A stretch of 64,000 nucleotides of DNA from a virus (lineage: Duplodnaviria; Caudoviricetes): IMG/VR virus record IMGVR_UViG_3300046495_000014, positions 1-64,000 of that record. One strand, 5' to 3'. This document shows positions 1,940 through 63,433 of the stretch, in pieces. Position 1 is the first letter of the stretch. Every line of letters starts with the position of its first letter. A program made the position numbers and the translations under genes. The notes below the pieces were generated by a model that saw only the letters and a program-made list of their open reading frames with translations, did not search any database and was not told the DNA's origin.

Positions 1940-1961
1940 GACGCCGGATCGATCCGGCGTC
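1940..1961. repeat. 22-bp palindrome, exact copy (upstream of sigma gene)
   Basis: GACGCCGGATCGATCCGGCGTC. Confidence 0.97.
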
Positions 1962-2018
1962 GTTCTGTCGTCGACGTATTCGCCCCCGCCGGTTCCTCTC
2001 GGCAGGGGCGATCCCTAA

Positions 2019-3539
2019 TTAGAGCGCGAACGGTACCGCTTCGAACTGAAACGGCTTCCGCGACTGCAGCATGCGACCGGCCGCCGACTGAATGTCGTCT
2101 TCGATCCAGACGTCCGACTGCGCTGCCGTTTCGTGCGCGTACCGCGTCCAGGCGTTGATGACGTCGCTTCGAACTAGCGTTGGAGTCTTTACCGGTTCGA
2201 CGTCGTACGCCTGCAAGACAGCCCGTAGAACGTCCGGCTTGCGTCCGCGGACCGGTACCAAGTCGCGTTTCATTTGCGACCAGACGATCCCCGCCAGTAC
2301 TTCGCGAGCCGTCATCCCTTCCAGGAGTTCGCCCGACGCCCGCGCGGTCGATTCGACGATCGCGTCGGCCCGCGCGTATCCCCAAGACTCGCGGAACGCC
2401 GCTAGCTTACCTAACGCCGTCGCGAACGCGGCTTCGAATTTAGCCGGTAGGTCAGCCCCGACGTGCCGGATCCCCGCGATCTGTTGCTCCGCGGTGTCGA
2501 GGATGATGAGGTTCAAGCAGAGGTTCCGTTCGACCATGGCCGAAACCCGAATCGATCCGTCCCCGACGTCGTTCGTTCGAACGATTACGCCAGCGCGGAA
2601 GATCTCGCCGCACCCGTAGTCTCCGGCGGCTACGTCGGAGTGGAACAGAACTTCGAACCGCGCTTGCTGCCCGTCGTAAACGATCGAACCGCGCGCGTCG
2701 AACGGCGCGGTTTGCGCTATCGCCCGCGCGATGACGTCGCAGTCCATCGCCCGGTACTGCTCGGAAACTACCGCGAAGATCGACCGGGGCCCCGCTTCGG
2801 TATTCCGACAGCGTAGAACGACCTTCGACGGTTCAGGCTCCGCGCCCTTCTGTCCCGATTCCACCCAGGCGTTCAACTTCGCGACTTCCCGACGATCGAT
2901 CCGATCCGTCCAGGCGTTTACATTTATCGCCCGCAGTTCCGGCCAACAGGACTTTAGGTAGCCAGCGCCGCCGATCCCGGTTCGAGATACCAGCGAATCG
3001 AACGCGGATTCGTCGATCGCGATCGCTACGGCCGGACAGCCCTGCGCGATAGTCAGTCGCCCGTCGTTACTCATTCCGACGTCCCCGACGCGAACGGTCG
3101 AATCCTTCCGGCGTTCCGACGCGATCTTCTCAGCGAACGCGAACGCGGCTTCGGTCACTCGCGGCTTCGCTTCGTACTCGAGACGGGCGGCCCGCGCGTT
3201 CTCGACGCCCGTTTCGTTTACCTTCCTACCTAGCGCGTACAGCGGATCGCGTAGCGTAAACCCTGCGGCCTGCGCCTTCGACGCGTCGTCGTCCAACCGA
3301 GCGGTTCGGATCGCTCGGCTGTAAACGGTATCGGTCGGATCGTCCTTCGGCGCCGCGTCGATCGACTTCGGTTCGGGCTTCGTCGTTATGACCGACACGT
3401 CCAGGGACTTATCGTAGCCGCCGGCTTCGCGGACCAGCCAATCTAGAGCTGCGTCGTGCTGGTCGCCGTTGAACTGGACTTCGATCCCTCGCAGTTTAGC
3501 GACGTGGGTTGGCGTTCCGAAATTAGGATGTGGCTGCAT
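2019..3539 (-). CDS. DUF932/DUF945-like phage protein
   Basis: GVIVRTNDVGDGSIRVSAMVERNLCLN motif; GGAAGGAA RBS. Confidence 0.65.
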   Translation of the reverse strand: MQPHPNFGTPTHVAKLRGIEVQFNGDQHDAALDWLVREAGGYDKSLDVSVITTKPEPKSIDAAPKDDPTDTVYSRAIRTARLDDDASKAQAAGFTLRDPLYALGRKVNETGVENARAARLEYEAKPRVTEAAFAFAEKIASERRKDSTVRVGDVGMSNDGRLTIAQGCPAVAIAIDESAFDSLVSRTGIGGAGYLKSCWPELRAINVNAWTDRIDRREVAKLNAWVESGQKGAEPEPSKVVLRCRNTEAGPRSIFAVVSEQYRAMDCDVIARAIAQTAPFDARGSIVYDGQQARFEVLFHSDVAAGDYGCGEIFRAGVIVRTNDVGDGSIRVSAMVERNLCLNLIILDTAEQQIAGIRHVGADLPAKFEAAFATALGKLAAFRESWGYARADAIVESTARASGELLEGMTAREVLAGIVWSQMKRDLVPVRGRKPDVLRAVLQAYDVEPVKTPTLVRSDVINAWTRYAHETAAQSDVWIEDDIQSAAGRMLQSRKPFQFEAVPFAL

Positions 3540-3587
3540 GTTGATTCCTTCCCGTTAGGGGTGATCCCGTCTGACCAACCCAAGGTA

Positions 3588-3604
3588 CGGCGCACCATGC
3601 TCCA
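3588..3604 (-). promoter_or_regulatory. 17-bp operator-like palindrome filling a TGGACG-17-TACCTT promoter spacer
   Basis: Minus strand TGGACG TGGAGCATGGTGCGCCG TACCTT; related copies at 12460, 55866, 59041. Confidence 0.7.
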
Positions 3605-3627
3605 CGTCCACATAAATCGCCCGCCCG

Positions 3628-3957
3628 CTACTTTTGTCCCTTCGGCACCTTCGCTTTCGCGATCGGCCGGGTACCCCGTCCCGCCTTAGCTAGTCGGCGT
3701 TCTTCCGCCCGTTCCAGCGCCGCGCCGACTTCCAGAGTCTTCGCCGGTCCCTTCTTCGTTAGTTCCACGCGGGGATCGGTTAGTCCCGCGGCCACTAATC
3801 GAGCGATCCAGCGCTGGATCGTATGCCGATCGACGTTCTGGTCTTTCGCTACCGCGTCGAGCGTCTTTAGTTTCGCGAATAGCTTTCGCAGTTCCGCGCT
3901 AGCCGCGGGAGGGTTCGAAAATATCAGGATGCCCAACGCTGTCGGATTGTACGCCAT
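3628..3957 (-). CDS. Small HTH DNA-binding protein with basic tail
   Basis: LDAVAKDQNVDRHTIQRWIARL helix-turn-helix pattern; CATAGT-N6-ATG start. Confidence 0.6.
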   Translation of the reverse strand: MAYNPTALGILIFSNPPAASAELRKLFAKLKTLDAVAKDQNVDRHTIQRWIARLVAAGLTDPRVELTKKGPAKTLEVGAALERAEERRLAKAGRGTRPIAKAKVPKGQK

Positions 3958-3970
3958 GCCCTCACTATGG

Positions 3971-3992
3971 CGCGCCGGATCGATCCGGCGTC
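3971..3992. repeat. 22-bp palindrome, variant copy (20/22)
   Basis: CGCGCCGGATCGATCCGGCGTC, fused to the CATAGT box of the HTH gene. Confidence 0.9.
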
Positions 3993-3994
3993 GA

Positions 3995-4207: not shown

Positions 4208-4220
4208 GGCCCCGACGGTA

Positions 4221-5144
4221 TCACAGCCAGTCCGCCAGCGCCGCCCGCAGGGTTTCGTCGGATACCCCTCCCGGATCTTCGCCGTCCGCCAGTCGTACCC
4301 GCGTGACATTCGTCCAACGACCCAAGCCGCGTAGGTCGTCGCACACTTTATCGCCGGCCGCGTCGGCGTCGGATAGCACGACAACGTTGGGGAACGTCGT
4401 CATCGCCGCCGACTGTTGGCCGCTCGGATTCGATCCGATCATGGCTCCCGCCGGTAGTCGCGTAGCGCGATCCACGGCCAGTAGATCGAACGGTCCTTCC
4501 ACCACGACCAGCACCCGACGATCCTCGAGATCGGGCCAGTGCTCCGCCCCGTAAAGTATCGGCGTCCGAACGTGGCTCGGGGTCGTGTACCGTAGATCGT
4601 CGTCGACGTACGTTCGCGCCTGCCAGGTTACCAGCCGTCGATCGCCGTCCCGCATCGGCAGCCAGATCCGATTGACGAGCGACCGATCGCCCTTCGCGAT
4701 GAACCCCAGTCCCCAGCGCCGCACCATCGCCCAGTCGATTCGGCGGGCCGTCAGATACTCCACCGCCAGCGACGGCCAGTCGTCTAACGAATCCCCGAAC
4801 CGCACCCAGTCAGGCGCCGCCATCGCCGCGGCCGCCGTCGCTTCCCGGATCTCGATGTGGACGTTGAGCGGCGTGTGCGAGATCGAACCGTCCGCCAACC
4901 AGTTGCGAGCGTCGTCCCAATCGCCCCCGCGTAACTCGCGAATCAGTCCGACGGGCCCCCCTCGGAATCCGCAGCCGTAGCAGCGGTGCTTGCCGTTCCG
5001 CAGTCCGTCCGGGTCGTTCCAGATGTACCAGCTAGGGTCCTTGTCGTCGTGTTCAGGCGACGGGCACTTCGCCCATAGCCGCTTACCCGCCCGCTTCTCC
5101 ACGCGGATGTCGAGCGCGGCCAGTAACGCTGGAACGTCAATCAT
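4221..5144 (-). CDS. dnaG: DNA primase (CHC2 Zn finger + TOPRIM)
   Basis: CPSPEHDDKDPS...CYGCG zinc finger; VVVEGPFDLL and LSDADAAG TOPRIM motifs. Confidence 0.9.
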   Translation of the reverse strand: MIDVPALLAALDIRVEKRAGKRLWAKCPSPEHDDKDPSWYIWNDPDGLRNGKHRCYGCGFRGGPVGLIRELRGGDWDDARNWLADGSISHTPLNVHIEIREATAAAAMAAPDWVRFGDSLDDWPSLAVEYLTARRIDWAMVRRWGLGFIAKGDRSLVNRIWLPMRDGDRRLVTWQARTYVDDDLRYTTPSHVRTPILYGAEHWPDLEDRRVLVVVEGPFDLLAVDRATRLPAGAMIGSNPSGQQSAAMTTFPNVVVLSDADAAGDKVCDDLRGLGRWTNVTRVRLADGEDPGGVSDETLRAALADWL

Positions 5145-5331
5145 CGTCGCCGCGCCTGCGCGAAGTAGGATCCCGGAAGTACGCGTTGACGGCGCGCAGT
5201 ACTGCCTGTTGTTGCGGTTCCGGCAACGGCGCCAGCGCTGTGACGATCTGCGCCAGCGCCTGCATCTCGACCGTAGTCTTGGCTAGTATCTGGTCTTCCG
5301 CCGTAACCGTCGGTTCCTTCTTCGGTCTCAT
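5137..5331 (-). CDS. Hypothetical protein (64 aa)
   Basis: CATAGT-N6-ATG start; overlaps primase start. Confidence 0.6.
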   Translation of the reverse strand: MRPKKEPTVTAEDQILAKTTVEMQALAQIVTALAPLPEPQQQAVLRAVNAYFRDPTSRRRGDDD

Positions 5332-5338
5332 GACTACA

Positions 5339-6874
5339 CTATGGCGCGCCGGATCGACTCCGGCGCCGCGGAGGCATCGATCCGCGAACGAACGAATTTC
5401 CCCCGAGCGTGATGTCCAGTTCGTTCGCTTCCGACCCGGGGCGGTCGTACGCCAGCGTGCGCCCGCGATCTAACGAACCGAACGCAGGATCCCAGTCGAA
5501 TTCAATCGCTAGCGGCCACTGCCCGTACCGCTGCTTGAGGATAATCGCTTGGATCGTATCGTCAGGCACGTTCCGGTGCAGAGCCGGGCGGTACCAGCCG
5601 ATGATCGTATCCGCAACATCGATCCAGGCCGACGTCCCCTTGATCGATTCCCGCGTCGGCCGTTGGTCGTCGCGCGCTTCGACGTCCTTCAGTCGCAGTT
5701 GCTGCACGAGGATCCCGTGCGCCTGCGTTTCCTGCATCATCGCCTGCATCCGATACAGCGCTTGTTCTTCGTCGTCCGGATCGGTTTCCGCGAGTACCCG
5801 TCGGAATAGGTCGCCGATGAACACGTCCGGGGCCGCGTCCGCGATGTACTGGTGCAGCAAATCGAGGTTCGCAGCGTTCGACCGCCGTTCCCCCGACGCC
5901 CGACCGTACGGTAGATCCAGGAATCGGATCCACTGCGATAGCCGCTCCATCTCAGCCAATAGTTCCTCTTGGTCGGCTTCGCTGAACCGCCCTACCATCA
6001 GATCGGTACGCGACCAGCCGAGCGATATGGCAGCCACGATCTCGAGAGTCATCGCCGACTTCTGTTCCCACGCCCCGTACAGCACCTTGCGTCCCTGCCT
6101 AGCCTGTTCCAGCGCCATCCGGGCGGTCGTCGTGGATTTCGCTGAACCGGATATCCCGACGATGACCGTAAGCTTCCCCGGGGCCGCGCCGGGAATCAGT
6201 CGGGCCGCCCCTGGTTCGTCGTCGTCTTCGCCGTAGTAGTCCATCCCGTCGATCCCGTAGGGGAACACGGCTCGCCCCATCCGGCGGTCTTCCAGTTCCT
6301 TCTTATGCTCCCGCAGTAGTCCCGCCGGATCGCGTAAGTACTTCCGATCCCCCATGCCGTCGAACGACGTTCCGATCGATCGCGCCAGCGCGCGGACCTT
6401 CGACGGATCCGACAACGGATCTCGAATCGCTTCCAAGAATTCCGTTACGGGCCCGCGTACCGCTTCGATGCGCGCCCGGTCCCAAGCTAGGCATTCAGCG
6501 TGGTGGCGTAGGTTCGGGGGAGCCGCCGGTCGATCGGCGCAGTACGCGTCCAGCATCGCAGTGTCGACGGCGCCACCGGTCATCTGTTGGACCGTCGCCG
6601 GGTCGTACGTCAGCCCCTGCGCCCGTAGTCGTTGCAGTACCGCCCAGGCCTGCGCGTGCCCCTGCCCGTAGAAGCTATCGGCTGAAATGGTCGGTAAGTA
6701 ATGCGCTGCCGCTTCCGCATCGACGATTACCGCGGCCAGCATAACGATTTCGTTCACTACGTCGTGCGGGACCTTCACCGATTCGTTCTTCGGTTTCGCG
6801 TCGGGCGTTTCCCTGCGCGGCTTCCCCTGGCGACGCAACGACCCGTCGTCGACCTGACTTCGTTTTTTCCGCAT
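5339..6874 (-). CDS. dnaB: DnaB-like SF4 replicative helicase
   Basis: LTVIVGISGSAKST Walker A, FIGDL Walker B, LVQQL, RPTRESIKGTSAWIDVADTIIGWYR, IILKQRYG. Confidence 0.9.
   Translation of the reverse strand: MRKKRSQVDDGSLRRQGKPRRETPDAKPKNESVKVPHDVVNEIVMLAAVIVDAEAAAHYLPTISADSFYGQGHAQAWAVLQRLRAQGLTYDPATVQQMTGGAVDTAMLDAYCADRPAAPPNLRHHAECLAWDRARIEAVRGPVTEFLEAIRDPLSDPSKVRALARSIGTSFDGMGDRKYLRDPAGLLREHKKELEDRRMGRAVFPYGIDGMDYYGEDDDEPGAARLIPGAAPGKLTVIVGISGSAKSTTTARMALEQARQGRKVLYGAWEQKSAMTLEIVAAISLGWSRTDLMVGRFSEADQEELLAEMERLSQWIRFLDLPYGRASGERRSNAANLDLLHQYIADAAPDVFIGDLFRRVLAETDPDDEEQALYRMQAMMQETQAHGILVQQLRLKDVEARDDQRPTRESIKGTSAWIDVADTIIGWYRPALHRNVPDDTIQAIILKQRYGQWPLAIEFDWDPAFGSLDRGRTLAYDRPGSEANELDITLGGNSFVRGSMPPRRRSRSGAP
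5346..5366. repeat. Variant of 22-bp palindrome
   Basis: GCGCCGGA-TCGAC-TCCGGCGC adjacent to CATAGT box, inside 3' end of dnaB. Confidence 0.75.
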
Positions 6875-6895: not shown

Positions 6896-7393
6896 TTAGA
6901 GCGCCGACGTCTTCGACATCGCGATCCGGTAATCCGTTACGCCCGACCGCCCAGCGAACTGCCAGCGCCAGCCGATCCGCCAGTCCGATTTGCGCGTGGG
7001 GAATTGCTTCGCCTCCTTCCGCCATGTCCAGCGTACGAAGTCCAACGCCCAGTCGATCCGACCTGAGAATTCGACGGTCACAAGTCGCTTCGCGGCCGAC
7101 GTCGCACCGTCCATTTCCCTCCCGTCTAGTAGTTCCGCCGGTTCGACGCCGTACACCCGAGTGTGGAGCACGATAAACAGACCGACCACTGCGCGAGGGG
7201 TCAACGAACTAAAGTCGAGCGTCCCGTCAGTTACCGAGTCGATCGCGATTTGCGCTTCCCGAACGGCCGTCGCGTATCGGGCCGCAGCCGATCGCCGCGA
7301 CGGCTTCTTCTGCGGAGTAGGCTTCGCCCCCTCCAAGAATTCGGAATTTAGGTGATCCGTCGGTACGAGTAAGGGAATGTGTCGAACGCGCAT
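6896..7393 (-). CDS. Hypothetical replication-associated protein
   Basis: Helical 165-aa ORF directly upstream of dnaB; GCGCCATAGT box 8 nt before ATG. Confidence 0.6.
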   Translation of the reverse strand: MRVRHIPLLVPTDHLNSEFLEGAKPTPQKKPSRRSAAARYATAVREAQIAIDSVTDGTLDFSSLTPRAVVGLFIVLHTRVYGVEPAELLDGREMDGATSAAKRLVTVEFSGRIDWALDFVRWTWRKEAKQFPTRKSDWRIGWRWQFAGRSGVTDYRIAMSKTSAL

Positions 7394-8845: not shown

Positions 8846-9385
8846 CTATTTCCCGTCAGGCCCGCCCAGTCCGGCGTTGGAACTGATCGTTCGCGACGCC
8901 TTCCGAATGTCGGCCATGTACCGGATCAACGCGGATTCGTATTCTACGACGTACATCGACAGCGCCAGCTTGTGCGCCCGCTTGTAAACCACGACCGGAT
9001 CGTCTCCCGCGCCGACCTGCATCACCACTCGGACTGGTCCGACCGTGAATGTGTTGTACTTCACCGGGGAATACGTATTCGGGCCCAGCTGCACCGAAAC
9101 CTCAGCGACCGACCCCGACTTCGGATCTTTTGCGTCGACCACCTGTTCGTCCAGTGGTGTCACCCAGTCTTCCCCCTCCGGAGGCGTCGGGTTGTCCACG
9201 GTCTGCATCGCCCGTCCCTTCGCCGCAGCTTCGTCCGCCCGCTGTTGCGCCCAGTCCGGGGCGGGCGTCGACGTCGGTTCGCCGACGGCGGGAATTGGTG
9301 GTTCGACCGCCGTCGTCGGGGTCGGAGTCGAACCCGGGGATGCTGCGTTGCTTAGGGTCTGCGTGTCGCTTCGTCGCCTTACCAT
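8846..9385 (-). CDS. Hypothetical protein with Pro/Thr-rich N-terminus
   Basis: Globular C-half VSVQLGPNTYSPVKYNTFTVGPVRV; start uncertain. Confidence 0.6.
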   Translation of the reverse strand: MVRRRSDTQTLSNAASPGSTPTPTTAVEPPIPAVGEPTSTPAPDWAQQRADEAAAKGRAMQTVDNPTPPEGEDWVTPLDEQVVDAKDPKSGSVAEVSVQLGPNTYSPVKYNTFTVGPVRVVMQVGAGDDPVVVYKRAHKLALSMYVVEYESALIRYMADIRKASRTISSNAGLGGPDGK

Positions 9386-11702
9386 CTGCTTGGTTCCTCT
9401 CGATCCATTGTTTAGCCGGGATCCAGTCGTCGCCGTCGCGAACTACCACACGAGCGTTCCACCGAATCAAATTCTGCAACGGCTTCAATCCGAAAATGTT
9501 CGCGTCCCAAACGTAATACACCGCTGCGTCAGTCTTCCCCTTCGCGGATCGGGCGAACCGTCCGCGGTACTGCCGCCACTGCATCGCGCCGCCCGCGGCG
9601 TTCGCGACAGGCGACGCGCAGATCCCCCGCGCGACTGCCGGCAGATCGAACCCGACGCCGATCGCCTGGTAGGTACCGACGGCAACCTGGATCTCACCCG
9701 CGACGAATCCGCGCAACGTCCTGCCGAATTCTTCCCGGTAATCAGTCCCGCCGATCAGTAACCCCGATCGAAGTCCGATCGCCGATATCGCCGAATCCAG
9801 TACGTGACAGTGCTCCCGCCGCCCTGCGAGAACGATCGCCGATCCAACCTGCGCGACTGATTCGGATACGACCTGCACGATGGCAGCGTTCCGTTCCGCG
9901 CTACCGCCCAGATCTTCCGCCAGTCGATCCGCGGAACGGATCTTCATCTTCGTTCTCCGTGCGATCAACTGTTCTTCGGTTTCGTTCGGATCGGTCGACT
10001 TCAGATCCAGGATCTCTTGCCACCAGTCGAACCGAACGTCGGTCGGTATCACCCGAACCTCGACTTCGTGAATCCGCCCCGCCGCCACCAGTTCGTCGGC
10101 CTTCACTTCCGCGGTTACGGGCCCGAACTGATCGTAAATCAGACACTCTTTGCGGTCGGCGCGCCGCTCGTCGCCGGATACCCCGAGCCGATACCGCGCC
10201 GGGAATCTGTCGATCGACGACTGGAACGTGTCCGCCGCGAATAGTTGGATCTCGTCGCCGATTACCAGCCCGAACCGATCGACGTCGTGGGTCGGCATGT
10301 TCTTCAGCGACTGTTGCATCGCGACTACGATCGGCGGACTAACGTCGTACTTGCCGCCGCCGACTACGCCCGGCGTGAACCCTAGTTCGTCCCGGATCCG
10401 CGTACACCATTGCCGCATCAGAACGCTGTTCGATATGACGACGATCGTATTGACGCCCATCCGGGTAGCCAGAATCAACGCCGCAGTCGTTTTGCCGCTG
10501 TTATGAACAACTATCCGGTTAGCTAAATAACAGTGGGGATCGTCCAGCACCAGATCGTACGTCGCCGTCGTCCGAGCATCGCCGACATCGCGCACTTCGT
10601 CCCATATCGTTCTAGCGTTGACGTTCCGCCACTGCGTTCTACCGGGCCATGATCGGTGCGCCGCCGCGGTCATCAACGCTAAGTTCGAAAGATCGTTGTT
10701 CCGCCCGTTCTCATCGATATGATGAACCGAATATTCCGGTGGAATGAAGTACAACCCGTCGACATCACCCGATCTAAGCCTGGCGATGTACTCGTCAAAG
10801 TCTAGTCGATTCAATGCCGACTCCATCACCAATCGATGCCGCAAGACCGTCATCGCATTATCGAACTGCCTAGCAGCGTACGGATGTCCGTCTAATCCTT
10901 GGACGTACTTCCGGTGAACGCGCCCTGGAGGATCGACGTCCACTTGACCTTCGACTGCGATCTCAACTCCCGAACGTAATGCCTTTAGAGGTTTCCACCC
11001 GTGACGCGTAAGAAATAGATGATCGTCCGTCGCTTCGATCGATAGTCCACCCACCGTAATCAACCGACGTACTTCCCGATCGCCAGTCGATACCGCATCG
11101 AGAACCCGAATCAATCGCACACTACCATTCGCGTCCCGACCTCGAACGTAAGTTGGGATCGTCGGATCCCAAACCCTACCGCTAACCACCCCGCCGTGAA
11201 ATCTGTGAACGATATCCGCGATCGGAATCGTGAACGACTTCCCAGCACGATTGACTCCGATCCGGGTATCGCCGGCCACACACGCCTGAACGCTACGCCA
11301 GAGCGCCACACTATCTCGAGTCTCGAATTTCGCCATCGCCGCTTCGATGAGCGTCGACTGATAGTCGTAGGGAACTACGTTCGACGGCGGGATGTCGACT
11401 TGTTCGCCCTGCGGCCGCGTCGTCGTGACTTCGTAGGCCAGCTGGGCCGCCCGCAAGATCGCTTCGACTCGCGACAGTCCCCCGCGCGGAACCGATAATT
11501 CGCAACCGACGGATCGATCGGTACTTTCCTTCCAGGACACCAGGAACTTCGGAACGTGCTTGAAGAACCCGAACGCTTTCGCCTTCGAGTAGTCCGGATT
11601 CGAGTACGTGAATTGGCGCTTGATCTCGTCGCGCACTTCGTCCGACAACTGGCCGTCGAAGTCGTCGATCCGAACCCGGTTGTCGATGTGCAGAATGATC
11701 AC
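9102..11702 (-). CDS. SF2 DEAD/DEAH-like helicase interrupted by an intein
   Basis: QA|SGKT Walker A after splicing, LVIGDEIQ, RLGVSGD, VAVGTYQAIGVGFDLP, QYRGRFAR; start moved to GTG 11702 (CATAGT-N6-GTG). Confidence 0.88.
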   Translation of the reverse strand: MIILHIDNRVRIDDFDGQLSDEVRDEIKRQFTYSNPDYSKAKAFGFFKHVPKFLVSWKESTDRSVGCELSVPRGGLSRVEAILRAAQLAYEVTTTRPQGEQVDIPPSNVVPYDYQSTLIEAAMAKFETRDSVALWRSVQACVAGDTRIGVNRAGKSFTIPIADIVHRFHGGVVSGRVWDPTIPTYVRGRDANGSVRLIRVLDAVSTGDREVRRLITVGGLSIEATDDHLFLTRHGWKPLKALRSGVEIAVEGQVDVDPPGRVHRKYVQGLDGHPYAARQFDNAMTVLRHRLVMESALNRLDFDEYIARLRSGDVDGLYFIPPEYSVHHIDENGRNNDLSNLALMTAAAHRSWPGRTQWRNVNARTIWDEVRDVGDARTTATYDLVLDDPHCYLANRIVVHNSGKTTAALILATRMGVNTIVVISNSVLMRQWCTRIRDELGFTPGVVGGGKYDVSPPIVVAMQQSLKNMPTHDVDRFGLVIGDEIQLFAADTFQSSIDRFPARYRLGVSGDERRADRKECLIYDQFGPVTAEVKADELVAAGRIHEVEVRVIPTDVRFDWWQEILDLKSTDPNETEEQLIARRTKMKIRSADRLAEDLGGSAERNAAIVQVVSESVAQVGSAIVLAGRREHCHVLDSAISAIGLRSGLLIGGTDYREEFGRTLRGFVAGEIQVAVGTYQAIGVGFDLPAVARGICASPVANAAGGAMQWRQYRGRFARSAKGKTDAAVYYVWDANIFGLKPLQNLIRWNARVVVRDGDDWIPAKQWIERNQADGKATKRHADPKQRSIPGFDSDPDDGGRTTNSRRRRTDVDARPGLGATAGGRSCGEGTGDADRGQPDASGGGRLGDTTGRTGGRRKRSEVGVGR
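10500..11282 (-). mobile_element. Intein (261 aa) with HNH homing endonuclease
   Basis: Starts CVAGDTRI, block B EATDDHLFLT, ends HCYLANRIVVHN followed by Ser; internal HRLVMESAL...VHHIDENGRNNDLSNL. Confidence 0.92.
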
Positions 11703-11725
11703 GCCCGTACTATGACGCGAACCGT

Positions 11726-12448
11726 TCAGCACGACGGACCGTCGGGGATCCAGCCTGGTCCGATGTCCTTGCAGTTCGGGGGATTCCCCGCGACGTATTC
11801 CCACGTCGTTCCGGCGGTCGTCCGCAAACAGCACAGGATCTGCGTCTTCCCGGTTCCTACTGGCGCGGCCGTAGTAGCTCCGCCCGTGCCCGTCGGCGTT
11901 CCGCCGACCGCTGTCGTAGCCTTCGCAGTCGTTCCGCCCGTGCCCGTCGAACATTTCCCGCAGGACTTCGAACAGTAGCCGGCGAACCAACTTTGCGAGC
12001 ACAGACCGATCGTAACGGCTTCCACGCAGGTCTCTTGCGGCCTAGGGGTATCGACGCAGCCCGTCGCAGTCGTTCCCCCGGCGGTCGTCTGCGTAGTCGT
12101 AGCGGTCGCAGTCGTCCCGCCGACGCCGGATCGATCCGGCGTCGAAGTCGTCGCCGTAGTTCCGCCGGCTGTCGTCGCCGTAGTTCCGCCGGCTGTCGTC
12201 GCCGTAGTCGTCCCCGTCGATCCACCAATTGAAGTTCTGGCAGTAGTCGCCGGGATCGGCGTAGTTCCGCCCGTCGCTGAAGTCGTCCCCGTCGATCCTC
12301 CAATTGTCGTCCGGTCCTGGTTCGCCGTTACCCCTACCGCCCCCGCGGTGATCTGGTCAGTCGATCCGCCCGTATCCGATCCGCAGCCGGTTATCAGTAC
12401 CAGTCCGATCGCTAGTAGTCGCATGGTCGATCCCTTCCTTTCGGTCAC
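11726..12448 (-). CDS. Lipoprotein with Thr/Gly linker and Cys-rich (ShKT-like) module
   Basis: Lipobox LITGC; GGTTATT repeats; CVDTP..CVEAVTIGLCSQSWFAGYCSKSCGKC. Confidence 0.7.
   Translation of the reverse strand: MTERKGSTMRLLAIGLVLITGCGSDTGGSTDQITAGAVGVTANQDRTTIGGSTGTTSATGGTTPIPATTARTSIGGSTGTTTATTAGGTTATTAGGTTATTSTPDRSGVGGTTATATTTQTTAGGTTATGCVDTPRPQETCVEAVTIGLCSQSWFAGYCSKSCGKCSTGTGGTTAKATTAVGGTPTGTGGATTAAPVGTGKTQILCCLRTTAGTTWEYVAGNPPNCKDIGPGWIPDGPSC
12122..12143. repeat. 22-bp palindrome, exact copy, in-frame inside lipoprotein gene
   Basis: Reads TPDRSGV within the Thr-rich linker. Confidence 0.97.
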
Positions 12449-12523: not shown

Positions 12524-13309
12524 CTACCCGCGACCGTACCCCAAACTTCGCAGCGCTTCGACGACGGCAGTCGATACTACCGTGGCTAGATCCGCTGCCG
12601 GTAACGCGGGGGGAGTCGGTTCCGCCCGGGGGGATTCGTACTTCCCAGACCTTCGAATCGACGGCAGTACTTCCGACGTCACCCAGCGCTTGAACGCCCT
12701 AGCTTCCGGCTTCCGACTCCCGAGGATGAGCGCGTATAGCCCCGATTCGTTGACGTAAAGTGCTTTAGTTTGGCTCGTTCTCAGTTGAACAGATACTGCC
12801 ACAGTATCCTCAGAATCAATTCGCGAACACGCTTGGCTAACATTCTCGACCCCCAGCGCCTTGCAGACGTCCGACGCCCGGAACAACGGAGCGTCCTGCG
12901 TCCCCGCTGTTCGAACAATCGACGACCCGAACATGAACGCCGGTCCGATGTCATCCGATTCGTCGACGGTCGGAAGATCGGATTCCTCTAACGACGTCGC
13001 CCAATCGGCGTACTGATTCGCGTTCGATAACCCCAGCGCGTTCTTGGTGCGTATCCCCAGCACGACTACGCCTTCCGCCGAAATGTATACGGTACGGACC
13101 GTATGCCCCACGGAATTCGTCCGTTGAAACGCCCTCGCGCGGTTTTCGTTCAGACCGCCGCCGGGTAGCAGTCCGGCCATAATCCAGCGCCCGACAGTCG
13201 ACGGGTCCACGCCGATCAACGTCGCGATCTGCCGCTTCATCAGCCACGGCTGTCCGTCTTCGATGCGTACCGCCAACGTCGTCTGGCCTACTTGGTAAAG
13301 CTTGTTCAT
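12524..13309 (-). CDS. BRO-N family antirepressor-like protein
   Basis: PLFRASDVCKALG...YVNESGLYALILGSRKPEARAFKRWVTSEVLPSIRRSGKY; N-terminal WLMKRQIATLIGVDPSTVGRWI HTH; start at ATG 13309 (GGAG RBS). Confidence 0.9.
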   Translation of the reverse strand: MNKLYQVGQTTLAVRIEDGQPWLMKRQIATLIGVDPSTVGRWIMAGLLPGGGLNENRARAFQRTNSVGHTVRTVYISAEGVVVLGIRTKNALGLSNANQYADWATSLEESDLPTVDESDDIGPAFMFGSSIVRTAGTQDAPLFRASDVCKALGVENVSQACSRIDSEDTVAVSVQLRTSQTKALYVNESGLYALILGSRKPEARAFKRWVTSEVLPSIRRSGKYESPRAEPTPPALPAADLATVVSTAVVEALRSLGYGRG

Positions 13310-13339
13310 CGTCTGAGTCTCCACGACGACTATGGCGCG

Positions 13340-13361
13340 GACGCCGGATCGATCCGGCGTC
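13340..13361. repeat. 22-bp palindrome, exact copy (BRO promoter)
   Basis: Followed on minus strand by CGCGCCATAGT. Confidence 0.97.
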
Positions 13362-21042: not shown

Positions 21043-22044
21043 TTAGCCTACCAGGAAACCGGAACAGCCGAGCCCCGGCATCAGCTGGATCCCTACCGCG
21101 GGAGGTTTCGGGGTCGGCAACGCGAACATCGCCATAATCGCTGCCGCGGTCAACGGCGTACCGGCCAACCCCGCTTTCGTAGCGGCTACGATCCCCGCCA
21201 ACGACACGTCCAAGTTGGCCGTAGTTATCCCCAACAACGTGCCGTACTGCGCCAGGAACGACGACAACAGCGTCACGACCGACTCGGCCGTGGCTACGTG
21301 CTCTGCTGGTTGGTTACCGGACGTTCCCAAAACGAACGTCCCCGGAACCAAGATTGTGTTCGGGTCGTTCGGACTGTCGCTCAACTGCATGTAAGCCGAA
21401 CCCATTTGCATGATGTACTGCTTACCGGTCAACGATAGTTGCAGCACGGCGTTACCGTCGCCCGACACATACCCGAAGACGTCGGCGGATACCTGGAACG
21501 CGTTTTTTTCCCCGTCCCGTAACGTCACCACGCCGTTCAAGTCGATCGACAGGAACGCGCCAGTCGGGGCTGACCTAAACATGATGGGGCCGGCGGTTTC
21601 CTCGATGAACGGCGTGCGTCGTCGTCGGAACGCGAACGTGTTCGTCGTCGGATCCTGGCCCGCCACCGAATCCATCGGGAACCGGTCGAACGCGTTGTTC
21701 AGTCGCCCGATGATTACGGGCCCCGCCGCTTCGTTCCCAGACGGTAGCGCCACCAGTACTTCGTCGCCCTTCACGAACGGGTGGTATTCCCCTTCCCCGT
21801 TACCCGCGATGACAGACGACAGCCGGCAATGCACTTCGTTCCGCGAGGGCATCAGCATTACGCACACCATCGGCTGACCAAGCTCCGCGTCGAACGTAAC
21901 GATGTCCTTCGGATCGGTAGCGTGTACCAGGCCGTACGAAATCCATTGGCGCGGATCGATACCGGGCCGCGCCATCCCCGCTGCCGCCGTCGCCGAATCC
22001 AGCGGTCGAACTACTTTCCGAACGGTCGATGTCGTCCTGCTCAT
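21043..22044 (-). CDS. Baseplate central spike (gpV/gp45-like)
   Basis: OB-fold motif GEYHPFVKGDEVLVALPSGN followed by beta-strand repeats. Confidence 0.8.
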   Translation of the reverse strand: MSRTTSTVRKVVRPLDSATAAAGMARPGIDPRQWISYGLVHATDPKDIVTFDAELGQPMVCVMLMPSRNEVHCRLSSVIAGNGEGEYHPFVKGDEVLVALPSGNEAAGPVIIGRLNNAFDRFPMDSVAGQDPTTNTFAFRRRRTPFIEETAGPIMFRSAPTGAFLSIDLNGVVTLRDGEKNAFQVSADVFGYVSGDGNAVLQLSLTGKQYIMQMGSAYMQLSDSPNDPNTILVPGTFVLGTSGNQPAEHVATAESVVTLLSSFLAQYGTLLGITTANLDVSLAGIVAATKAGLAGTPLTAAAIMAMFALPTPKPPAVGIQLMPGLGCSGFLVG

Positions 22045-23863: not shown

Positions 23864-23885
23864 GACGCCGGATCGATCCGGCGTC
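23864..23885. repeat. 22-bp palindrome, exact copy at divergent promoter
   Basis: TACCTT-N6-GTG on minus side, CATAGT-N6-ATG on plus side. Confidence 0.97.
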
Positions 23886-28036: not shown

Positions 28037-28058
28037 GACGCCGGATCGATCCGGCGTC
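28037..28058. repeat. 22-bp palindrome, exact copy (extends to 28 bp, 28034-28061)
   Basis: Between chaperone stop and GTGTTACCCT-N6-GTG of tape measure. Confidence 0.97.
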
Positions 28059-33092: not shown

Positions 33093-33365
33093 TCAGGCGG
33101 TAACCCACCGACCGTCCCGGATGAATCCGTGGTGGCCGCACGCGCGACAAAGTACCGACGGTAACAGCGTTATCGGTTCAGCGGTTGCCAGCTGCCAGCC
33201 CATTCCCGCAGGGCAGTGCTCACCTTCGACTGCGATCCATCCGGCATGCGCGCCCTTAGGACAGTCGTGCCAATAGGCGACGCCGGCCAATTCCCCATCG
33301 ATATATCGCTGTTCAATCGTAACCCCGGACCCGATGTCGATGATTTCGCGTTTGGTACAGTCCAC
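33093..33365 (-). CDS. Small Cys/His metal-binding protein (DUF6527-like)
   Basis: WHDCPKG...PITLLPSVLCRACGHHGFIRDGRW; AGGAG RBS. Confidence 0.55.
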   Translation of the reverse strand: MDCTKREIIDIGSGVTIEQRYIDGELAGVAYWHDCPKGAHAGWIAVEGEHCPAGMGWQLATAEPITLLPSVLCRACGHHGFIRDGRWVTA

Positions 33366-33384: not shown

Positions 33385-33406
33385 GACGCCGGATCGATCC
33401 GGCGTC
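33385..33406. repeat. 22-bp palindrome, exact copy overlapping upstream stop codon
   Basis: TGA at 33405-33407 shares 2 nt with the palindrome. Confidence 0.97.
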
Positions 33407-36996: not shown

Positions 36997-37308
36997 CTAA
37001 GGACTTTTGAGGGGTTGCCCGTTCGGGTCGGCGGGTTGGTAGGGGACGACGTTGTTCGCGGCCCGCTGGTACGCGATAGGCAGGCGCCCGAATACGACGA
37101 GCGCGATCCCCTGAACTATCAGCCACGGGTCGGCGGGGAGTATCCCGCGCACCAGCTTTAGCCACCCAGCGCGTCGTGGGTTCCGGTAGCACCAGGCGTC
37201 GATCTGCGACTTCCGTCCGACAGCGACCATCAGAACTAAGTAGAGGACGAACAAGCCGACGTTACGTTGGACGGTAGGGTTCGACGCTAGGGCTAATAGG
37301 TGGGGCAT
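36997..37308 (-). CDS. Two-TM membrane protein (holin candidate)
   Basis: Two hydrophobic helices with basic loop. Confidence 0.55.
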   Translation of the reverse strand: MPHLLALASNPTVQRNVGLFVLYLVLMVAVGRKSQIDAWCYRNPRRAGWLKLVRGILPADPWLIVQGIALVVFGRLPIAYQRAANNVVPYQPADPNGQPLKSP

Positions 37309-37347: not shown

Positions 37348-37369
37348 GACGCCGGATCGATCCGGCGTC
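37348..37369. repeat. 22-bp palindrome, exact copy
   Basis: 3 nt after stop of beta-helix gene. Confidence 0.97.
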
Positions 37370-47951: not shown

Positions 47952-47973
47952 GACGCCGGATCGATCCGGCGTC
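47952..47973. repeat. 22-bp palindrome, exact copy at divergent promoter
   Basis: CATAGT-N6-ATG(47992) on plus side. Confidence 0.97.
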
Positions 47974-47991: not shown

Positions 47992-48168
47992 ATGGCCAAA
48001 CCGAAATCCCAGCCCGTACCCGCCGACGACGGGGGGGCTTCGTCGTTCCTCGACTCCGACGCCGCTGAACTACTCCCGAAGAAGTCCTACATCGTCGCCC
48101 CTGCGGACCAGACCGATCCGAACTGGAAGATGACCGACGAACAGTTGGCGGAATTATTGAAAGACTAG
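47992..48168 (+). CDS. Small acidic plus-strand protein (58 aa)
   Basis: MAKPKSQPVPADDGG...LAELLKD; stop overlaps MuF stop by 4 nt. Confidence 0.6.
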   Translation: MAKPKSQPVPADDGGASSFLDSDAAELLPKKSYIVAPADQTDPNWKMTDEQLAELLKD

Positions 48169-53092: not shown

Positions 53093-53344
53093 CTACAGTC
53101 GACGCCCGCGTCTATCCGCCAGGCTACCGACTAGCGGTGGGTCGTCGACGACGCCGGATCGATCCGGCGTCGCTTCGTCGCGTAACAGTCCCGCCGCCAC
53201 CAGATCGGCGCGCGTCGGCGGGAGATCGATCGTCGCCTGGAACCCGTCCGATTCTAAGTCGGACTTGGGCGGAGTCGACTCGCTGTCGACCCGCGTCACC
53301 CCGACTCGCGCCCATGCCTTCAGTGCCCCGAAACTCCAAGTCAT
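53093..53344 (-). CDS. Hypothetical protein containing in-frame palindrome
   Basis: ATGA coupling; contains TPDRSGV. Confidence 0.45.
   Translation of the reverse strand: MTWSFGALKAWARVGVTRVDSESTPPKSDLESDGFQATIDLPPTRADLVAAGLLRDEATPDRSGVVDDPPLVGSLADRRGRRL
53150..53171. repeat. 22-bp palindrome, exact copy, in-frame
   Basis: Reads TPDRSGV in 53093..53344. Confidence 0.97.
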
Positions 53345-55273: not shown

Positions 55274-55801
55274 TTACAGTCTCCCGCAGCCTAGGCCGCA
55301 CTTGGTTTGCAGTTCCGACTTCGACGCCGCGTTCGCCAGGCACGGGACGTCACAGGTCACTTTCGAATTCGAACATCGTAGCTTCAGCGACGCCGCGCAG
55401 TTCGTCGGGGTACCCTCGGGGCATCCAAGTCGCTTGACGTTCGCGCACGCCGCGTCTTCGATCGCCAGGCTCCCGCCCGCCGCGGTAGTCCCGCCGACGC
55501 TAGGAGAGCCGCCCATCGACGTCGTACCGCCAGCGCTCGTGGTTCCTCCCGCAGCGGGGGGCGGGGGGTTGGGGTTAGGTATCGGGTGGCAGGCTAACGC
55601 CCAGCCCAAGCAGCCGTACACCAGTTGTCGCGTCTTCATGTCGTCCTTGTAGGGGGTGGTGAGTATGGCCTGGCATTTCGCCGGCACTGAATTGCAGTTC
55701 GTCGCCGCTATCGGTTTCGACGTCAGTAGTTCGTCGGTCGAACCCGGATCGGTCGGCGCGCACGCGGTTAGTCCCAACAGAATCAGAATCGCTAATCGCA
55801 T
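55274..55801 (-). CDS. Cys-rich lipoprotein with Gly/Thr linker
   Basis: Lipobox LTAC; AGGTTSAGGTTSMGG linker; 8-Cys C-terminal module. Confidence 0.75.
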   Translation of the reverse strand: MRLAILILLGLTACAPTDPGSTDELLTSKPIAATNCNSVPAKCQAILTTPYKDDMKTRQLVYGCLGWALACHPIPNPNPPPPAAGGTTSAGGTTSMGGSPSVGGTTAAGGSLAIEDAACANVKRLGCPEGTPTNCAASLKLRCSNSKVTCDVPCLANAASKSELQTKCGLGCGRL

Positions 55802-55824: not shown

Positions 55825-55846
55825 GACGCCGGATCGATCCGGCGTC
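55825..55846. repeat. 22-bp palindrome, exact copy at divergent promoter
   Basis: GTGCTACCCT-N6-ATG on minus side; 17-bp operator promoter on plus side. Confidence 0.97.
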
Positions 55847-57491: not shown

Positions 57492-57823
57492 TTCAACCCC
57501 AGCGCTTTCGCGTTCCGCGCCGCCCGCGCCTTCTGTTCCTTCTGTTGCTTCTTCGTCGGCGCCTTCAGCGGTAGGGGCAACTTCACATCGTCCCGCCAGC
57601 GCTCGCCCAATCGTCGATCCTTAGCCCACCAGGACAGTACGACGATCTTGCCGGTCGTCCCCGCCTGGTAGACTTCCGAGTCATCATGCAGGCAGGACGT
57701 CGGGATCCACAGCAGGTCGTCCTTCCCGTCGATCGCAACCTGGATCGCCGTCGGTCTGACAGCGACGCACTTCCCCGTCCCTATCTGTTCCCCGTCGTTC
57801 CCCGAATCCCTACGCGTTTCCAT
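57488..57823 (-). CDS. Hypothetical protein (small beta-barrel)
   Basis: Start reassigned to METRRDSG with GGAAAGGAA RBS; LLWIPTSCL. Confidence 0.6.
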   Translation of the reverse strand: METRRDSGNDGEQIGTGKCVAVRPTAIQVAIDGKDDLLWIPTSCLHDDSEVYQAGTTGKIVVLSWWAKDRRLGERWRDDVKLPLPLKAPTKKQQKEQKARAARNAKALGLK

Positions 57824-58565
57824 CGTGATGTTCCTTTCCGCAGTCGTGACAGTACCGTTGTTCTGTTGATATCCGCTCGTGCCCGCAAGATAACGCAGGC
57901 GGTCGAGATCCGAATTCCTTAGGTCGAGCATGGTTCAGCGATTCCAATCCTATTCGAGTCAAGGCGCTGGCAGCGGCCGCGTCGACTTCGGCCTTCGCCG
58001 CCGATACGCGTTCCACGACCGCTTCGTTCATCATTTCGACGACGAACGGTGCCGCGTCGGTTAGCTTCCGCGCGACCCGTTCGAACATGGCCGCGACTTC
58101 CGCGCGGTCGGTCTTCGTCAACGTCTTCTGTTTCAGGATCTCCCGCGCCCGCAGTAGGTCCGTCCCCAGTACGTCGGCCGCCGTCGCTTCCAGTTCCGAC
58201 TTGAACGTGGCCGCGATGTGCTCGACGCGCCCCGCCAGTTCGGGGGGCGGGGGGACGCTGCGGTTCTCCCATCGCCGTAGCGTCCCGGTGGTTCCGACGC
58301 CGACGTTCATCGTCGTTATCAGTTCGGCGAACTGCGCCGCGCTGAAGTCGATCTCGACTAGATCGCCGCCTAGCGCCCCGTCGTACCGGTCTCCGTGTTC
58401 GTCCCGCCGTAACGTCGCGCGACTGACCGTCAACGCCACGTACCCGTAGTGTTCAGGTATCTTCGTCCCGAACAACTGGGGATTCCCAGACCTGCGGGAG
58501 AACGCCGCGACTACGTACGACGGGTGCTTGAATTCGACTTCTGTGTCCCTACGCGTCCGCGTCAT
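57810..58565 (-). CDS. Phage hypothetical protein (251 aa)
   Basis: HPSY..FSRRSG..LFGT..SAAQFAELITTMNVG motif pattern; AGGAGG RBS. Confidence 0.7.
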   Translation of the reverse strand: MTRTRRDTEVEFKHPSYVVAAFSRRSGNPQLFGTKIPEHYGYVALTVSRATLRRDEHGDRYDGALGGDLVEIDFSAAQFAELITTMNVGVGTTGTLRRWENRSVPPPPELAGRVEHIAATFKSELEATAADVLGTDLLRAREILKQKTLTKTDRAEVAAMFERVARKLTDAAPFVVEMMNEAVVERVSAAKAEVDAAAASALTRIGLESLNHARPKEFGSRPPALSCGHERISTEQRYCHDCGKEHHDGNA

Positions 58566-58680
58566 CGCGAACCTCCTGATTCGGTTCGACGCCGGATCGA
58601 TCCGGCGTCGGTTCTTCTTCGTCTGCGTTCGGGATCGCCAACAGCGCGTCGACGATCGCCCCGTAATCGACTTCAGTCAT
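58549..58680 (-). CDS. 43-aa acidic peptide containing in-frame palindrome
   Basis: GCGCCATCGT-N8-ATG; MTEVDYGAIVDALLAIPNADEEEPTPDRSGVEPNQEVRDDADA. Confidence 0.45.
   Translation of the reverse strand: MTEVDYGAIVDALLAIPNADEEEPTPDRSGVEPNQEVRDDADA
58588..58609. repeat. 22-bp palindrome, exact copy flanked by GGTTC direct repeat
   Basis: ggttc-palindrome-ggttc. Confidence 0.97.
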
Positions 58681-59040: not shown

Positions 59041-59057
59041 TGGCGCACGGTGCGCCA
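59041..59057. promoter_or_regulatory. 17-bp operator-like palindrome (perfect)
   Basis: TGGCGCAC-G-GTGCGCCA; minus strand TGGACT-N17-CATAAC. Confidence 0.75.
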
Positions 59058-60661: not shown

Positions 60662-60678
60662 GCCCCTACTATGGCGCG

Positions 60679-60700
60679 GACGCCGGATCGATCCGGCGTC
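60679..60700. repeat. 22-bp palindrome, exact copy overlapping terL stop codon
   Basis: TGA at 60699-60701 shares 2 nt. Confidence 0.97.
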
Positions 60701-62465: not shown

Positions 62466-62896
62466 GCTGACGGGTGTACCAAGGATTCGTCGAAGAAGGT
62501 ACCGCCCGGTCGGGTAATCTCAGTCGTCGACGCCGCGCGCAACACCCAGTCGCCGCGGCGTCGGGCGGCTCGGTGCATGTACTTCGTCGGGCCGCAGATC
62601 ACCCAGCGGGAGGCGTCCCACGCGATGCGGACCATCACCCAGCTATCCGGACCCGCTTCGCTGTTCACGTTCGCCCCGACCACGACGTACAGCCCGGCGT
62701 GCCTCGAATGACTCAGTAGCTCCCAAACATCGTCGACCTGCACCGGGCGATCCGCTAGCGCCCGACGTCGTTCGTCTTCCCCGATCGTCGTCGTCGACCA
62801 CCAGTGCAGGACGACCAGCACGAACAGCACGGCCAGTAGCAGCCCGAGGCATGTGATGCCCAAAACGATCCCCGTCGCAAAGTTGGTAGTTCCCAT
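62462..62896 (-). CDS. Membrane-anchored hypothetical protein
   Basis: N-terminal TM helix; GAAGGAA RBS. Confidence 0.6.
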   Translation of the reverse strand: MGTTNFATGIVLGITCLGLLLAVLFVLVVLHWWSTTTIGEDERRRALADRPVQVDDVWELLSHSRHAGLYVVVGANVNSEAGPDSWVMVRIAWDASRWVICGPTKYMHRAARRRGDWVLRAASTTEITRPGGTFFDESLVHPSA

Positions 62897-62906
62897 CGTA
62901 GTTCCT

Positions 62907-63392
62907 TCACGTAGTGATCCACGTCGGCGCGTCTTCTGTCCAGCGCCCCGAGCGCTGCACCAGCTTCCAGTCGCGTAGCTTTAGTTGCCGGGTCGATACG
63001 AACACCCGGGCGTCGTCCCCGCCCAACGGGTACTGATTCAGATACCCGATCTTGTGTAGCTCCCACGCGTACTCGCGGTGGTTCTCGACCGTTATCCGAT
63101 CCTCGACCCGATACAGGCGCGGAACGCTGCCGGGCGACTGCCAGACGTCGCCGATCTGCGCCCAGCTTCGCTTGGAGACGACGTGCGAGCAGTGGAAGCA
63201 GTACCGGTACCGACGCCCAGGCGTCCGAGCTAATCCGCAGCGGGCGCAGATCGCCGACTCCGGCGGTAACGCCCGCGCGTCGTGGCACGTCTGGCAGTCC
63301 CTAGCGTACGGCGCCCGGGGGAAGTTCCGACCGCACTTCCGGCACAGTCGTCCTACCTTCGACGGATTACAGTTGTGCGACTTCTTCGCCAT
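62907..63392 (-). CDS. Multi-CxxC zinc-ribbon protein
   Basis: CRKC, CQTC, CARC, CFHC; palindrome-GCGCCATAGT promoter. Confidence 0.65.
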   Translation of the reverse strand: MAKKSHNCNPSKVGRLCRKCGRNFPRAPYARDCQTCHDARALPPESAICARCGLARTPGRRYRYCFHCSHVVSKRSWAQIGDVWQSPGSVPRLYRVEDRITVENHREYAWELHKIGYLNQYPLGGDDARVFVSTRQLKLRDWKLVQRSGRWTEDAPTWITT

Positions 63393-63411
63393 CGTCCCCC
63401 GACTATGGCGC

Positions 63412-63433
63412 GACGCCGGATCGATCCGGCGTC
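63412..63433. repeat. 22-bp palindrome, exact copy
   Basis: Followed on minus strand by GCGCCATAGT. Confidence 0.97.

Follow-up and report, generated by a model that had tools for sequence, protein, structure and literature searches.

The DNA considered here is the phage record IMGVR_UViG_3300046495_000014 of IMG/VR, 85,601 bp long and ~93% complete. Its first 64 kb form the window (64,000 nucleotides, nt) in which a 22-bp palindrome, GACGCCGGATCGATCCGGCGTC, had been noticed at many gene junctions from the letters alone (the original prediction). The genome, G000 below, is 62% GC and carries 99 of its 105 predicted genes on the minus strand. For replication and recombination it encodes a family-B DNA polymerase, a primase, a DnaB-like helicase, a DEAD helicase with an HNH intein, a RecA-like protein and SbcC/SbcD-like, PD-(D/E)XK and DinG-like proteins. 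Regulatory and accessory genes include those for a sigma-like protein (region 2), a BRO protein and a fusion of a pyridoxal phosphate (PLP) enzyme with a methyltransferase, and the structural and packaging genes those for baseplate J and V, the large terminase (TerL), the portal and the major capsid protein. The phage has no close relative among sequenced phage isolates, the best capsid match being 32% identical and from a Streptomyces phage. A scan of approximately 80 of the 105 predicted proteins revealed neither an integrase nor a CI-like repressor and, as originally predicted, no transposase domain; many small open reading frames (ORFs) matched nothing.

A dispersed palindrome at gene junctions

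An exact-match search of the window found GACGCCGGATCGATCCGGCGTC at all 13 positions (13/13) given in the original prediction, and both variants, at 3971 and 5346, were located as well (Table 1). The whole record holds 15 exact and four variant copies, the additional exact ones lying at 69666 and 79115 and the additional variants at 70119 and 74964. By chance none would be expected, as 100 dinucleotide-preserving shuffles gave 0 matches. When placement was scored against our own gene calls for 18 copies in this genome, 15 of the 18 fell outside the genes, in a genome of which just 9.3% is non-coding (p = 2e-13), and the remaining three lay inside weak small ORFs. The copies occur at a density of ~1 per 4.5 kb at transcription-unit boundaries of a genome that is read almost entirely one way. 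Eight of the 18 lie no more than 20 nt past a stop codon, and three overlap a TGA: two in the window, at 33385 and 60679, as predicted, and one beyond it, at 79115.

Outside this phage the 22-mer is almost absent. It has 0 matches in other IMG/VR contigs, and among 185,579 species genomes (one genome per species) it has a single isolated match, which lies in DNA with no relation to the phage. Together with the equivalent palindromes of relatives described below, this rules out a repetitive element of the host or an assembly artefact, and the network can be regarded as real, phage-specific and non-random. Restriction-site or Dam-linked avoidance is likewise ruled out, since GATC, TCGA, CCGG and ATCGAT occur at their expected frequency outside the copies in this genome, and the dependence on GATC methylation raised in the original prediction gains no support from these counts.

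The variants depart from the consensus in different ways. That at 3971 has two mismatches, both at one end of the palindrome. That at 5346 reads GGCGCCGGA-G-TCGATCCGGCGC on the coding strand, with one additional central base, and also carries a compensated A2:T21 to G:C change. The copy at 74964 is a hybrid of one half-site of the type of this phage and one of the type of its relative G005.

Promoters are frequent neighbours of the copies. A -10-like box lies 1-11 nt downstream of nine of the 15 window copies, with boxes on both sides at 23864 and 47952, and to this extent the position originally predicted for the palindrome, just upstream of a -10, is correct. It does not apply to the copies at 1940, 12122, 33385, 37348, 53150 and 58588, which have no adjoining -10; after 33385 and 58588 there is a Shine-Dalgarno sequence instead. 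On the coding strand, nine copies lie 1-6 nt ahead of a near-identical CGCGCCATAGT box that is followed by ~6 nt and then ATG, an arrangement that looks like a phage-specific class of leaderless promoter (class I). There are 14 class-I boxes in the genome, often with the spacer aggggc, and six of these have no palindrome. Other copies lie 6-11 nt upstream of a second class of box, GTGnTAnnnT+6+start, found ahead of structural genes, and the variant at 70119 precedes a promoter of the TGGACT-N17 type. The palindrome is therefore found with three promoter classes or with none, at distances to the -10 of 1, 1-2, 4, 5, 6, 8, 11 and 25 nt. Since there is no fixed register between palindrome and promoter, the -35 element of a phage sigma factor and the site of a fixed-geometry activator are excluded, a conclusion that agrees with the class-I promoters lacking a palindrome and with the many copies in relatives that have no neighbouring promoter. 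Palindrome and promoter are separate modules that are often neighbours. The variable yet always short distance to the -10 (1-11 nt) fits steric occlusion rather than a -35 element.

Table 1. Copies of the palindrome, promoter boxes and selected proteins of the window, and the palindromes of related genomes.
Feature	Position	Strand	Remarks
Exact copy	1940..1961		57 nt past the stop of gene 2019-3539; 11 nt ahead of the start of sigma-like gene 1302-1928
Variant copy	3971..3992		coding strand GACGCC...GGCGCG; final bases run into the CGCGCCATAGT promoter of the helix-turn-helix gene
Variant copy	5346..5368		overlaps the 3' end of the DnaB-like gene; adjoins the GCCATAGT box of gene 5137-5331
Exact copy	12122..12143		in a 520-bp repeat-bearing gap upstream of the intein-containing DEAD helicase gene; with 13340 brackets the BRO gene
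Exact copy	13340..13361		5 nt upstream of the CATAGT box of BRO gene 12524-13324
Exact copy	23864..23885		outward-facing promoters on both sides: minus strand, GTGGTACCTT+6+GTG, for gene 22041-23843; plus strand, CGCGCCATAGT+6+ATG, for a small plus-strand ORF
Exact copy	28037..28058		7 nt past the upstream stop; 6 nt ahead of TACCCT+6+GTG of gene 26033-28018
Exact copy	33385..33406		overlaps the TGA of gene 33405-33956; then AGGAG and the GTG of gene 33093-33365
Exact copy	37348..37369		upstream of 36997-37308 and the major capsid gene
Exact copy	47952..47973		divergent promoters: plus, CATAGT+6+ATG for 58-aa ORF 47992-48168; minus, TACCGT+6+ATG at 25 nt
Exact copy	53150..53171		~90 nt upstream of the portal gene; within a weak 83-aa ORF
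Exact copy	55825..55846		11 nt upstream of TACCCT+6+ATG of gene 55274-55801
Exact copy	58588..58609		then AGGAG and the ATG of gene 57810-58565
Exact copy	60679..60700		overlaps the TGA of the large terminase gene; CATAGT+6+ATG lies 5 nt downstream
Exact copy	63412..63433		4-bp flank extension; 4 nt upstream of CATAGT; ahead of 62907-63392 and the terminase block
Class-I boxes	3964, 5338, 7402, 13329, 54482, 60668, 63402	-	others beyond 64 kb
Class-I box	23889	+
Sigma-like protein (Sigma70_r2)	1302..1928	-	kept across the family, including palindrome-free members
109-aa helix-turn-helix protein	3628..3957	-	basic GRP-type tail; candidate palindrome-binding factor only; conserved slot after the primase gene
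G001 palindrome			ATGGAAWCCCGGGWTTCCAT
G003 palindrome			GACCAAAAGGCGCCTTTTGGTC
G005 palindrome			GACGTCGGATCGATCCGACGTC
G006 palindrome			AATCCAATTGGATCGATCCAATTGGATT
G007 palindrome			ACGGATGATCGATCATCCGT
G008 palindrome			TGGAACTCGAGTTCCA
G009 palindrome			TGGGAACCCGGGTTCCCA
G010 palindrome			CGTCGGTGATCGATCACCGACG
G011 palindrome			GAGATAACACCGGTGTTATCTC
G012 palindrome			CACCGCACGGCGCCGTGCGGTG
G013 palindrome			ACGGAAACACGTGTTTCCGT

Some features near the copies deserve mention in their own right. Two small plus-strand ORFs, 23903-~24040 and 47992-48168, lie on class-I promoters diverging from palindromes and are among the very few opposite-strand genes. A second palindrome, TGGCGCACGGTGCGCCA, of 15-17 bp, sits in the spacer of TGGACT-N17-CATAAC promoters, in three copies including 70050-70118; it is distinct from the 22-mer network and resembles a classical operator. 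Tandem repeats (cggcgacgacagccggcggaactacggcgacgac...) at 12150-12260 flank the copy at 12122, in the 520-bp gap, which holds no confident gene.

Private palindromes in related phages

Searches with the terminase and capsid proteins revealed a family of uncultured 82-100-kb phages whose capsid proteins are 53-89% identical to that of G000. The three that were compared gene by gene, G001, G003 and G005, are syntenic with G000 and have ~40-45 orthologues each. Besides G000, 11 further genomes (82-100 kb, two of them partial) carry 8-26 copies each of a perfect 16-28-bp palindrome of their own. Private palindromes in twelve genomes are a family-wide design. A central CG is present in all 12 of the 12 carriers, and the dyad symmetry of the consensus runs through the centre in all; G003 is an exception in that most of its copies have one central mismatch. 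Copies are enriched between genes in every carrier (p = 6e-3 to 2e-16 per genome), and their spacing is more even than random in 10 of 11 genomes (coefficient of variation about 0.5-0.6 against 0.92).

The nearest relative, G005, shows how the motif changes. Its palindrome, identical in 8 of 8 copies, differs from that of G000 by a symmetric C5T/G18A change, and seven of the eight copies lie at the same junctions as copies in G000. At the 47952 junction a copy is present in G003 as well as in G005, and at the 37348 junction G001, G003 and G005 each have their own palindrome. The arms are common to G007 and G013, and the centres to G008 and G009 and to G003 and G012; such sharing between sister lineages means that the motif changes in symmetric steps as it evolves. 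The sites, invariant and lineage-specific, thus co-evolve together, stay at their junctions and are spread evenly along the genome. The site at 53150 aligns without gaps to non-palindromic sequence in G005, and from this alignment we consider that it arose in place, without an insertion or deletion. Simple insertion of a mobile element is ruled out by the same alignment.

Six genomes of the family, G014-G019 (loci L163-L181), have no repeated palindrome. As these form one clade nested among carriers, a single loss is suggested. In G014, 6-7 copies of a non-palindromic motif, GACCATAAACCGAAACCC, occur in a block of small genes.

G000 has further features of note. The DEAD-box helicase gene 9102-12002 (minus strand) is split by an intein with an HNH endonuclease, and its orthologues in relatives (~530-545 aa) are intein-free. 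At 71818-74268 lies an 816-aa fusion of a PLP-dependent enzyme with N6/N4 DNA methyltransferase domains, for which an orthologue was found only in G007. Tandem 18-bp repeats (AGCCAGCCAAGGCCGCGA, 7-9 units) occupy ~85,380-85,430, just upstream of the DNA polymerase promoter.

Possible roles of the sites

The identity of 15 copies over 22 bp, together with the concerted change in G005 and the half-site hybrid at 74964, would call for a sequence-specific reader, and in agreement with the original prediction we consider a putative sequence-specific factor to be the best reading of the network. We propose that the 22-mer is a boundary or gating site of a phage-encoded, dimeric, sequence-specific DNA-binding protein that co-evolves with it; judging from sequence and comparison, we put the probability of this proposal at roughly 45%. 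A dyad that runs through the centre and leaves no free loop looks like the symmetry of a double-stranded DNA site, unlike that of a hairpin. In the imperfect copies of relatives the two halves vary independently, which again favours a DNA site. In G008 the outer pyrimidine/purine combinations are observed in the ratio 7:5:8:4, where ~7.5:4.5:7.5:4.5 is expected if the halves are independent; palindrome ends of the form G..G and C..C occur in G007 and G013; and four of 13 copies in G001 have A·A or T·T at an inner position. Sense-strand G·U and A·C pairs number 30:21 (p = 0.26), so that there is no overall G·U bias. In G011 (L152), the palindrome and a conserved 3' tail, CGGGACAAACC, are translated in the variable insertion loop of TerL (codons ~290-312), and further intragenic copies lie within PolB and SbcC; given that a terminator within a conserved gene would be harmful, these copies speak against termination. 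The origin in place of the site at 53150, the intergenic bias, the even spacing and the short distances to the -10 box add to the case for our proposal. A plain RNA terminator is less likely, in our view, than a double-stranded DNA site for a dimeric protein. Our reading is of a putative sequence-specific DNA site that in some lineages may double as the tip of a terminator hairpin.

In the model that we favour, a two-fold symmetric protein encoded by the phage would bind its private 22-mer and act as a boundary, blocking RNA polymerase arriving from the upstream unit in the manner of the roadblock at stoperators. In this lineage the bound protein would also cover positions -13 to -45 of the adjoining -10-only leaderless promoter, and one factor could in this way gate many transcription units together. 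From the patterns described above we infer protein binding, a candidate for the binder and an effect on transcription.

As for that candidate, phyletic profiling of palindrome-positive against palindrome-negative genomes singled out a small helix-turn-helix (HTH) cluster, to which the 109-aa protein of Table 1 belongs. Its family has a hypervariable recognition helix with conserved T/R/W positions, and in this phage the variant palindrome at 3971, with its promoter, lies directly upstream of the gene. A reader of the ParB/KorB type, and with it the parS-like loading site of the original prediction, finds no support: ParB_N (PF02195) has no match in G000 at E <= 0.01, and its matches in G001, G007, G012 and the palindrome-free G014 do not track the palindromes. 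Nothing came of profile searches of the PDB with four conserved families whose function is unknown. Of the structure models, one, for the 6896-7393 family, is all-helical and of high confidence but has no counterpart among solved structures, and the other, for the 71346-71828 family, is of low confidence.

Several observations weigh against our proposal. In the palindrome-bearing G007 no HTH protein of type 1 was detected, and the palindrome-free G014 has a related HTH protein in the same slot. The clade without palindromes has all the core genes, and Pfam and PHROGs scans of the ~80 proteins yielded only the sigma-like, BRO and small HTH proteins as possible readers. As neither an integrase nor an immunity repressor was found among the scanned proteins, a stoperator role of the lysogeny type is without support. 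The sites are wholly invariant over 22-28 bp, their centres too, which is stricter than is usual for operators. The central 1-bp insertion of the copy at 5346 would disturb the site of a dimer but not a hairpin. In G001, G003 and G012 the copies hug stop codons, not promoters. Finally, some of the copies behave like hairpins: complementary flanks that differ from copy to copy are in excess (17.9% against 10%, p = 3e-4), with G001 and G012 contributing most, and two copies in G012 carry U-tracts.

The last of these points belong to an explanation that we consider distinctly less probable than a protein-bound boundary, namely that the palindrome is an RNA element, a hairpin that ends or stabilises the upstream transcript or serves as a processing site, its shared sequence reflecting a phage-specific RNA-binding or RNA-cutting factor. 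Once transcribed, the palindrome would form a 9-bp GC-rich stem with a UCGA loop, and the predicted hairpins are strong (-15.5 to -32.3 kcal/mol, z down to -5.8). The copies close behind stop codons and across TGA codons suit such a role, as does the copy at 5346, which retains pairing through its compensated change and tolerates an additional loop base. So do many copies in G001 and G012, which lie 1-20 nt past stop codons and have copy-specific stem extensions of 4-10 bp, giving stems of up to ~20 bp, and the closing pair of G003, which is G·U rather than A·C in nine of 11 imperfect copies. However, a U-tract 3' of the stem is absent from all 18 copies in this genome (0/18), so that the terminator of the original prediction is not supported as a canonical intrinsic one; among relatives only two copies in G012 have one. 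Flank extension is lacking in seven of the 12 genomes, and in G000 it reaches at least 3 bp in only two of 18 copies (one being that at 28037, where the flanks extend the stem by 3 bp). The loops are without exception self-complementary, a property for which a hairpin has no use; independent variation of the half-sites produces C·A, G·G and A·A mismatches; G·U pairs are not favoured overall; some copies lie within essential genes; and no Rfam family matches within the window. In G012 (L157), copies stand directly ahead of tRNA-like sequences, around sense positions 62335 and 67520, a flanking of tRNA genes that would also suit an RNA element, and the copies at 24974 and 50874 are full terminators with U-tracts, near-identical over ~60 nt.

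We regard as improbable a third account, in which the copies are junctions of recombination and modular shuffling: terminator-promoter cassettes homogenised by gene conversion, marking points of accessory-gene exchange and needing no dedicated binder. Nine copies do form composites with the near-identical CGCGCCATAGT promoter, a concerted change of all copies fits gene conversion, and the phage encodes RecA-like, SbcCD-like and PD-(D/E)XK proteins. Accessory genes are also bracketed by copies: the BRO gene by 12122 and 13340, where G005 has two adjacent copies and no BRO gene, and the orphan gene 69707-70048 by 69666 and 70119; at 33385, G005 has a different small gene on the other side of the copy. 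Yet 22 bp of homology is very short for recombination, most copies lie between conserved core genes at conserved junctions, and conversion alone leaves the perfect dyad, the central CG of each lineage and the even spacing unexplained. Even spacing is what a DNA-structural or genome-organising site independent of transcription would lead one to expect, whether a cruciform or hairpin signal for replication or recombination or a loading site for a condensing or partition protein of the ParB/KorB type. Some copies are intragenic, the phage has its own replisome with an SbcCD/RecA set, and several relatives have ParB_N proteins, all of which would accord with such a site. We nonetheless think it quite unlikely, because the distribution of ParB_N argues against it, because an intergenic bias with proximity to promoters and stops is not expected of a pure loading site, and because 22 bp is short for cruciform extrusion. 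The evidence narrows the alternatives of the original prediction, which is partly supported, a factor bound to the DNA being somewhat more probable than a role in RNA or in DNA structure.

A bolder form of the protein-bound boundary would be a fast-evolving address code, in which each lineage pairs its own palindrome with a cognate factor, the one-directional genome is divided into evenly spaced domains, many promoters are gated at once, and symmetric drift stops cross-regulation by co-infecting relatives, the whole having been lost once in one clade. This is speculative and we consider it unlikely; if true, a phage that is apparently lytic would have a specificity resembling immunity, and the network would be a boundary or insulator system of a new, global kind. 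Even the simpler boundary or gating role, if correct, would show how lytic phages organise gene-by-gene leaderless transcription and would offer compact orthogonal insulator and operator parts. The family is a natural experiment, with a dozen lineages, differing palindromes, partly conserved junctions, stepwise symmetric changes and one network-free sister clade. Furthermore, the reader and the role of the sites are testable with synthetic DNA and proteins expressed in cell-free systems; no cultured host is needed.

Comparison with known systems

Invariant palindromes scattered over the genome are on record for a small number of phage groups, among them Cluster O mycobacteriophages, but to our knowledge have never been explained. 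Among repeated elements more widely, repetitive extragenic palindromic (REP) elements, like the copies described here, are GC-rich 20-40-bp palindromes downstream of genes. However, REP elements, including the CGTC-tagged ones, are chromosomal and imperfect, have an unpaired tag and occur in hundreds of copies (PMC3733652), whereas the 22-mer is almost absent from the species genomes searched. Nor is there a link to REP-associated tyrosine transposases (RAYT), as GACG/CGTC are here the paired ends of the stem and not an unpaired GTAG/CGTC tag, and the scanned proteins include no transposase domain. With intrinsic terminators the palindromes have in common a stable GC-rich hairpin, but not the U-tract, absent in 18 of 18 copies of this genome.

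The promoter early stem-loop (PeSL) cassettes of T4-type phages combine a host-type early promoter with a stem-loop and cluster in hyperplastic regions (PMC2839356, PMC4122927). Common to both are repeated composites of stem-loop and promoter between the genes of a large lytic myovirus, and accessory genes are bracketed by some copies. In contrast, the copies here accompany three promoter classes or none, lie between core genes and are evenly spaced, and we do not count them as PeSL cassettes. KorB of plasmid RK2 is a ParB-family CTPase clamp with 12 O_B operators (PMC11790492), and here too a single invariant palindrome is found at roughly a dozen places in a mobile genome, some of them at promoters and some not, O_B being read by one global regulator. 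With no ParB_N detected in this phage, and with the ParB_N proteins of relatives not tracking the palindromes, the network is not a member of that system.

The stoperators of Cluster A mycobacteriophages, bound by gp71 in L5, are asymmetric 13-14-bp sites that are bound by a monomer, are oriented with respect to transcription and block elongating polymerase, and Cluster A phages are temperate, with an immunity repressor and an integrase (PMC6550527, PMC9283540). The networks resemble each other in having numerous near-identical sites, which lie in short gaps between genes and follow a consensus peculiar to the lineage. Stoperators, of which there are dozens per genome, co-evolve with the phage's own binder, and the resemblance extends to the change from lineage to lineage. 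The palindromes here are perfect and without orientation, and no lysogeny genes were found among the proteins scanned. The stoperator analogy of the original prediction is thus useful as a picture of how the sites may work, but the asymmetry and orientation of stoperators have no counterpart in this phage.

By analogy, the network would work most like the 17-bp dyad repeats of Cluster O mycobacteriophages, TGTTCGGNNNCCGAACA (TGTTCGG-N3-CCGAACA), of which there are >30 dispersed copies (Cresawn et al., 2015; PMC4351075). The phage family (Cluster O being Corndog-related) and the motif sequence are unrelated to those described here. In Cluster O repeats a free spacer of 3 bp separates the arms, whereas the dyad described here, 16-28 bp long, passes through a CG centre that is conserved; a single motif is common to all Cluster O phages, where each lineage here has its own; and most Cluster O sites lie away from promoters, unlike here. 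What the two have in common are dispersed copies, invariant inverted-repeat arms, apparently lytic phages and a partly intragenic placement, Cluster O sites being intergenic, start-proximal or intragenic. No cognate protein is known for the Cluster O repeats, and their authors, too, predict a dimeric DNA-binding protein (PMC4351075).

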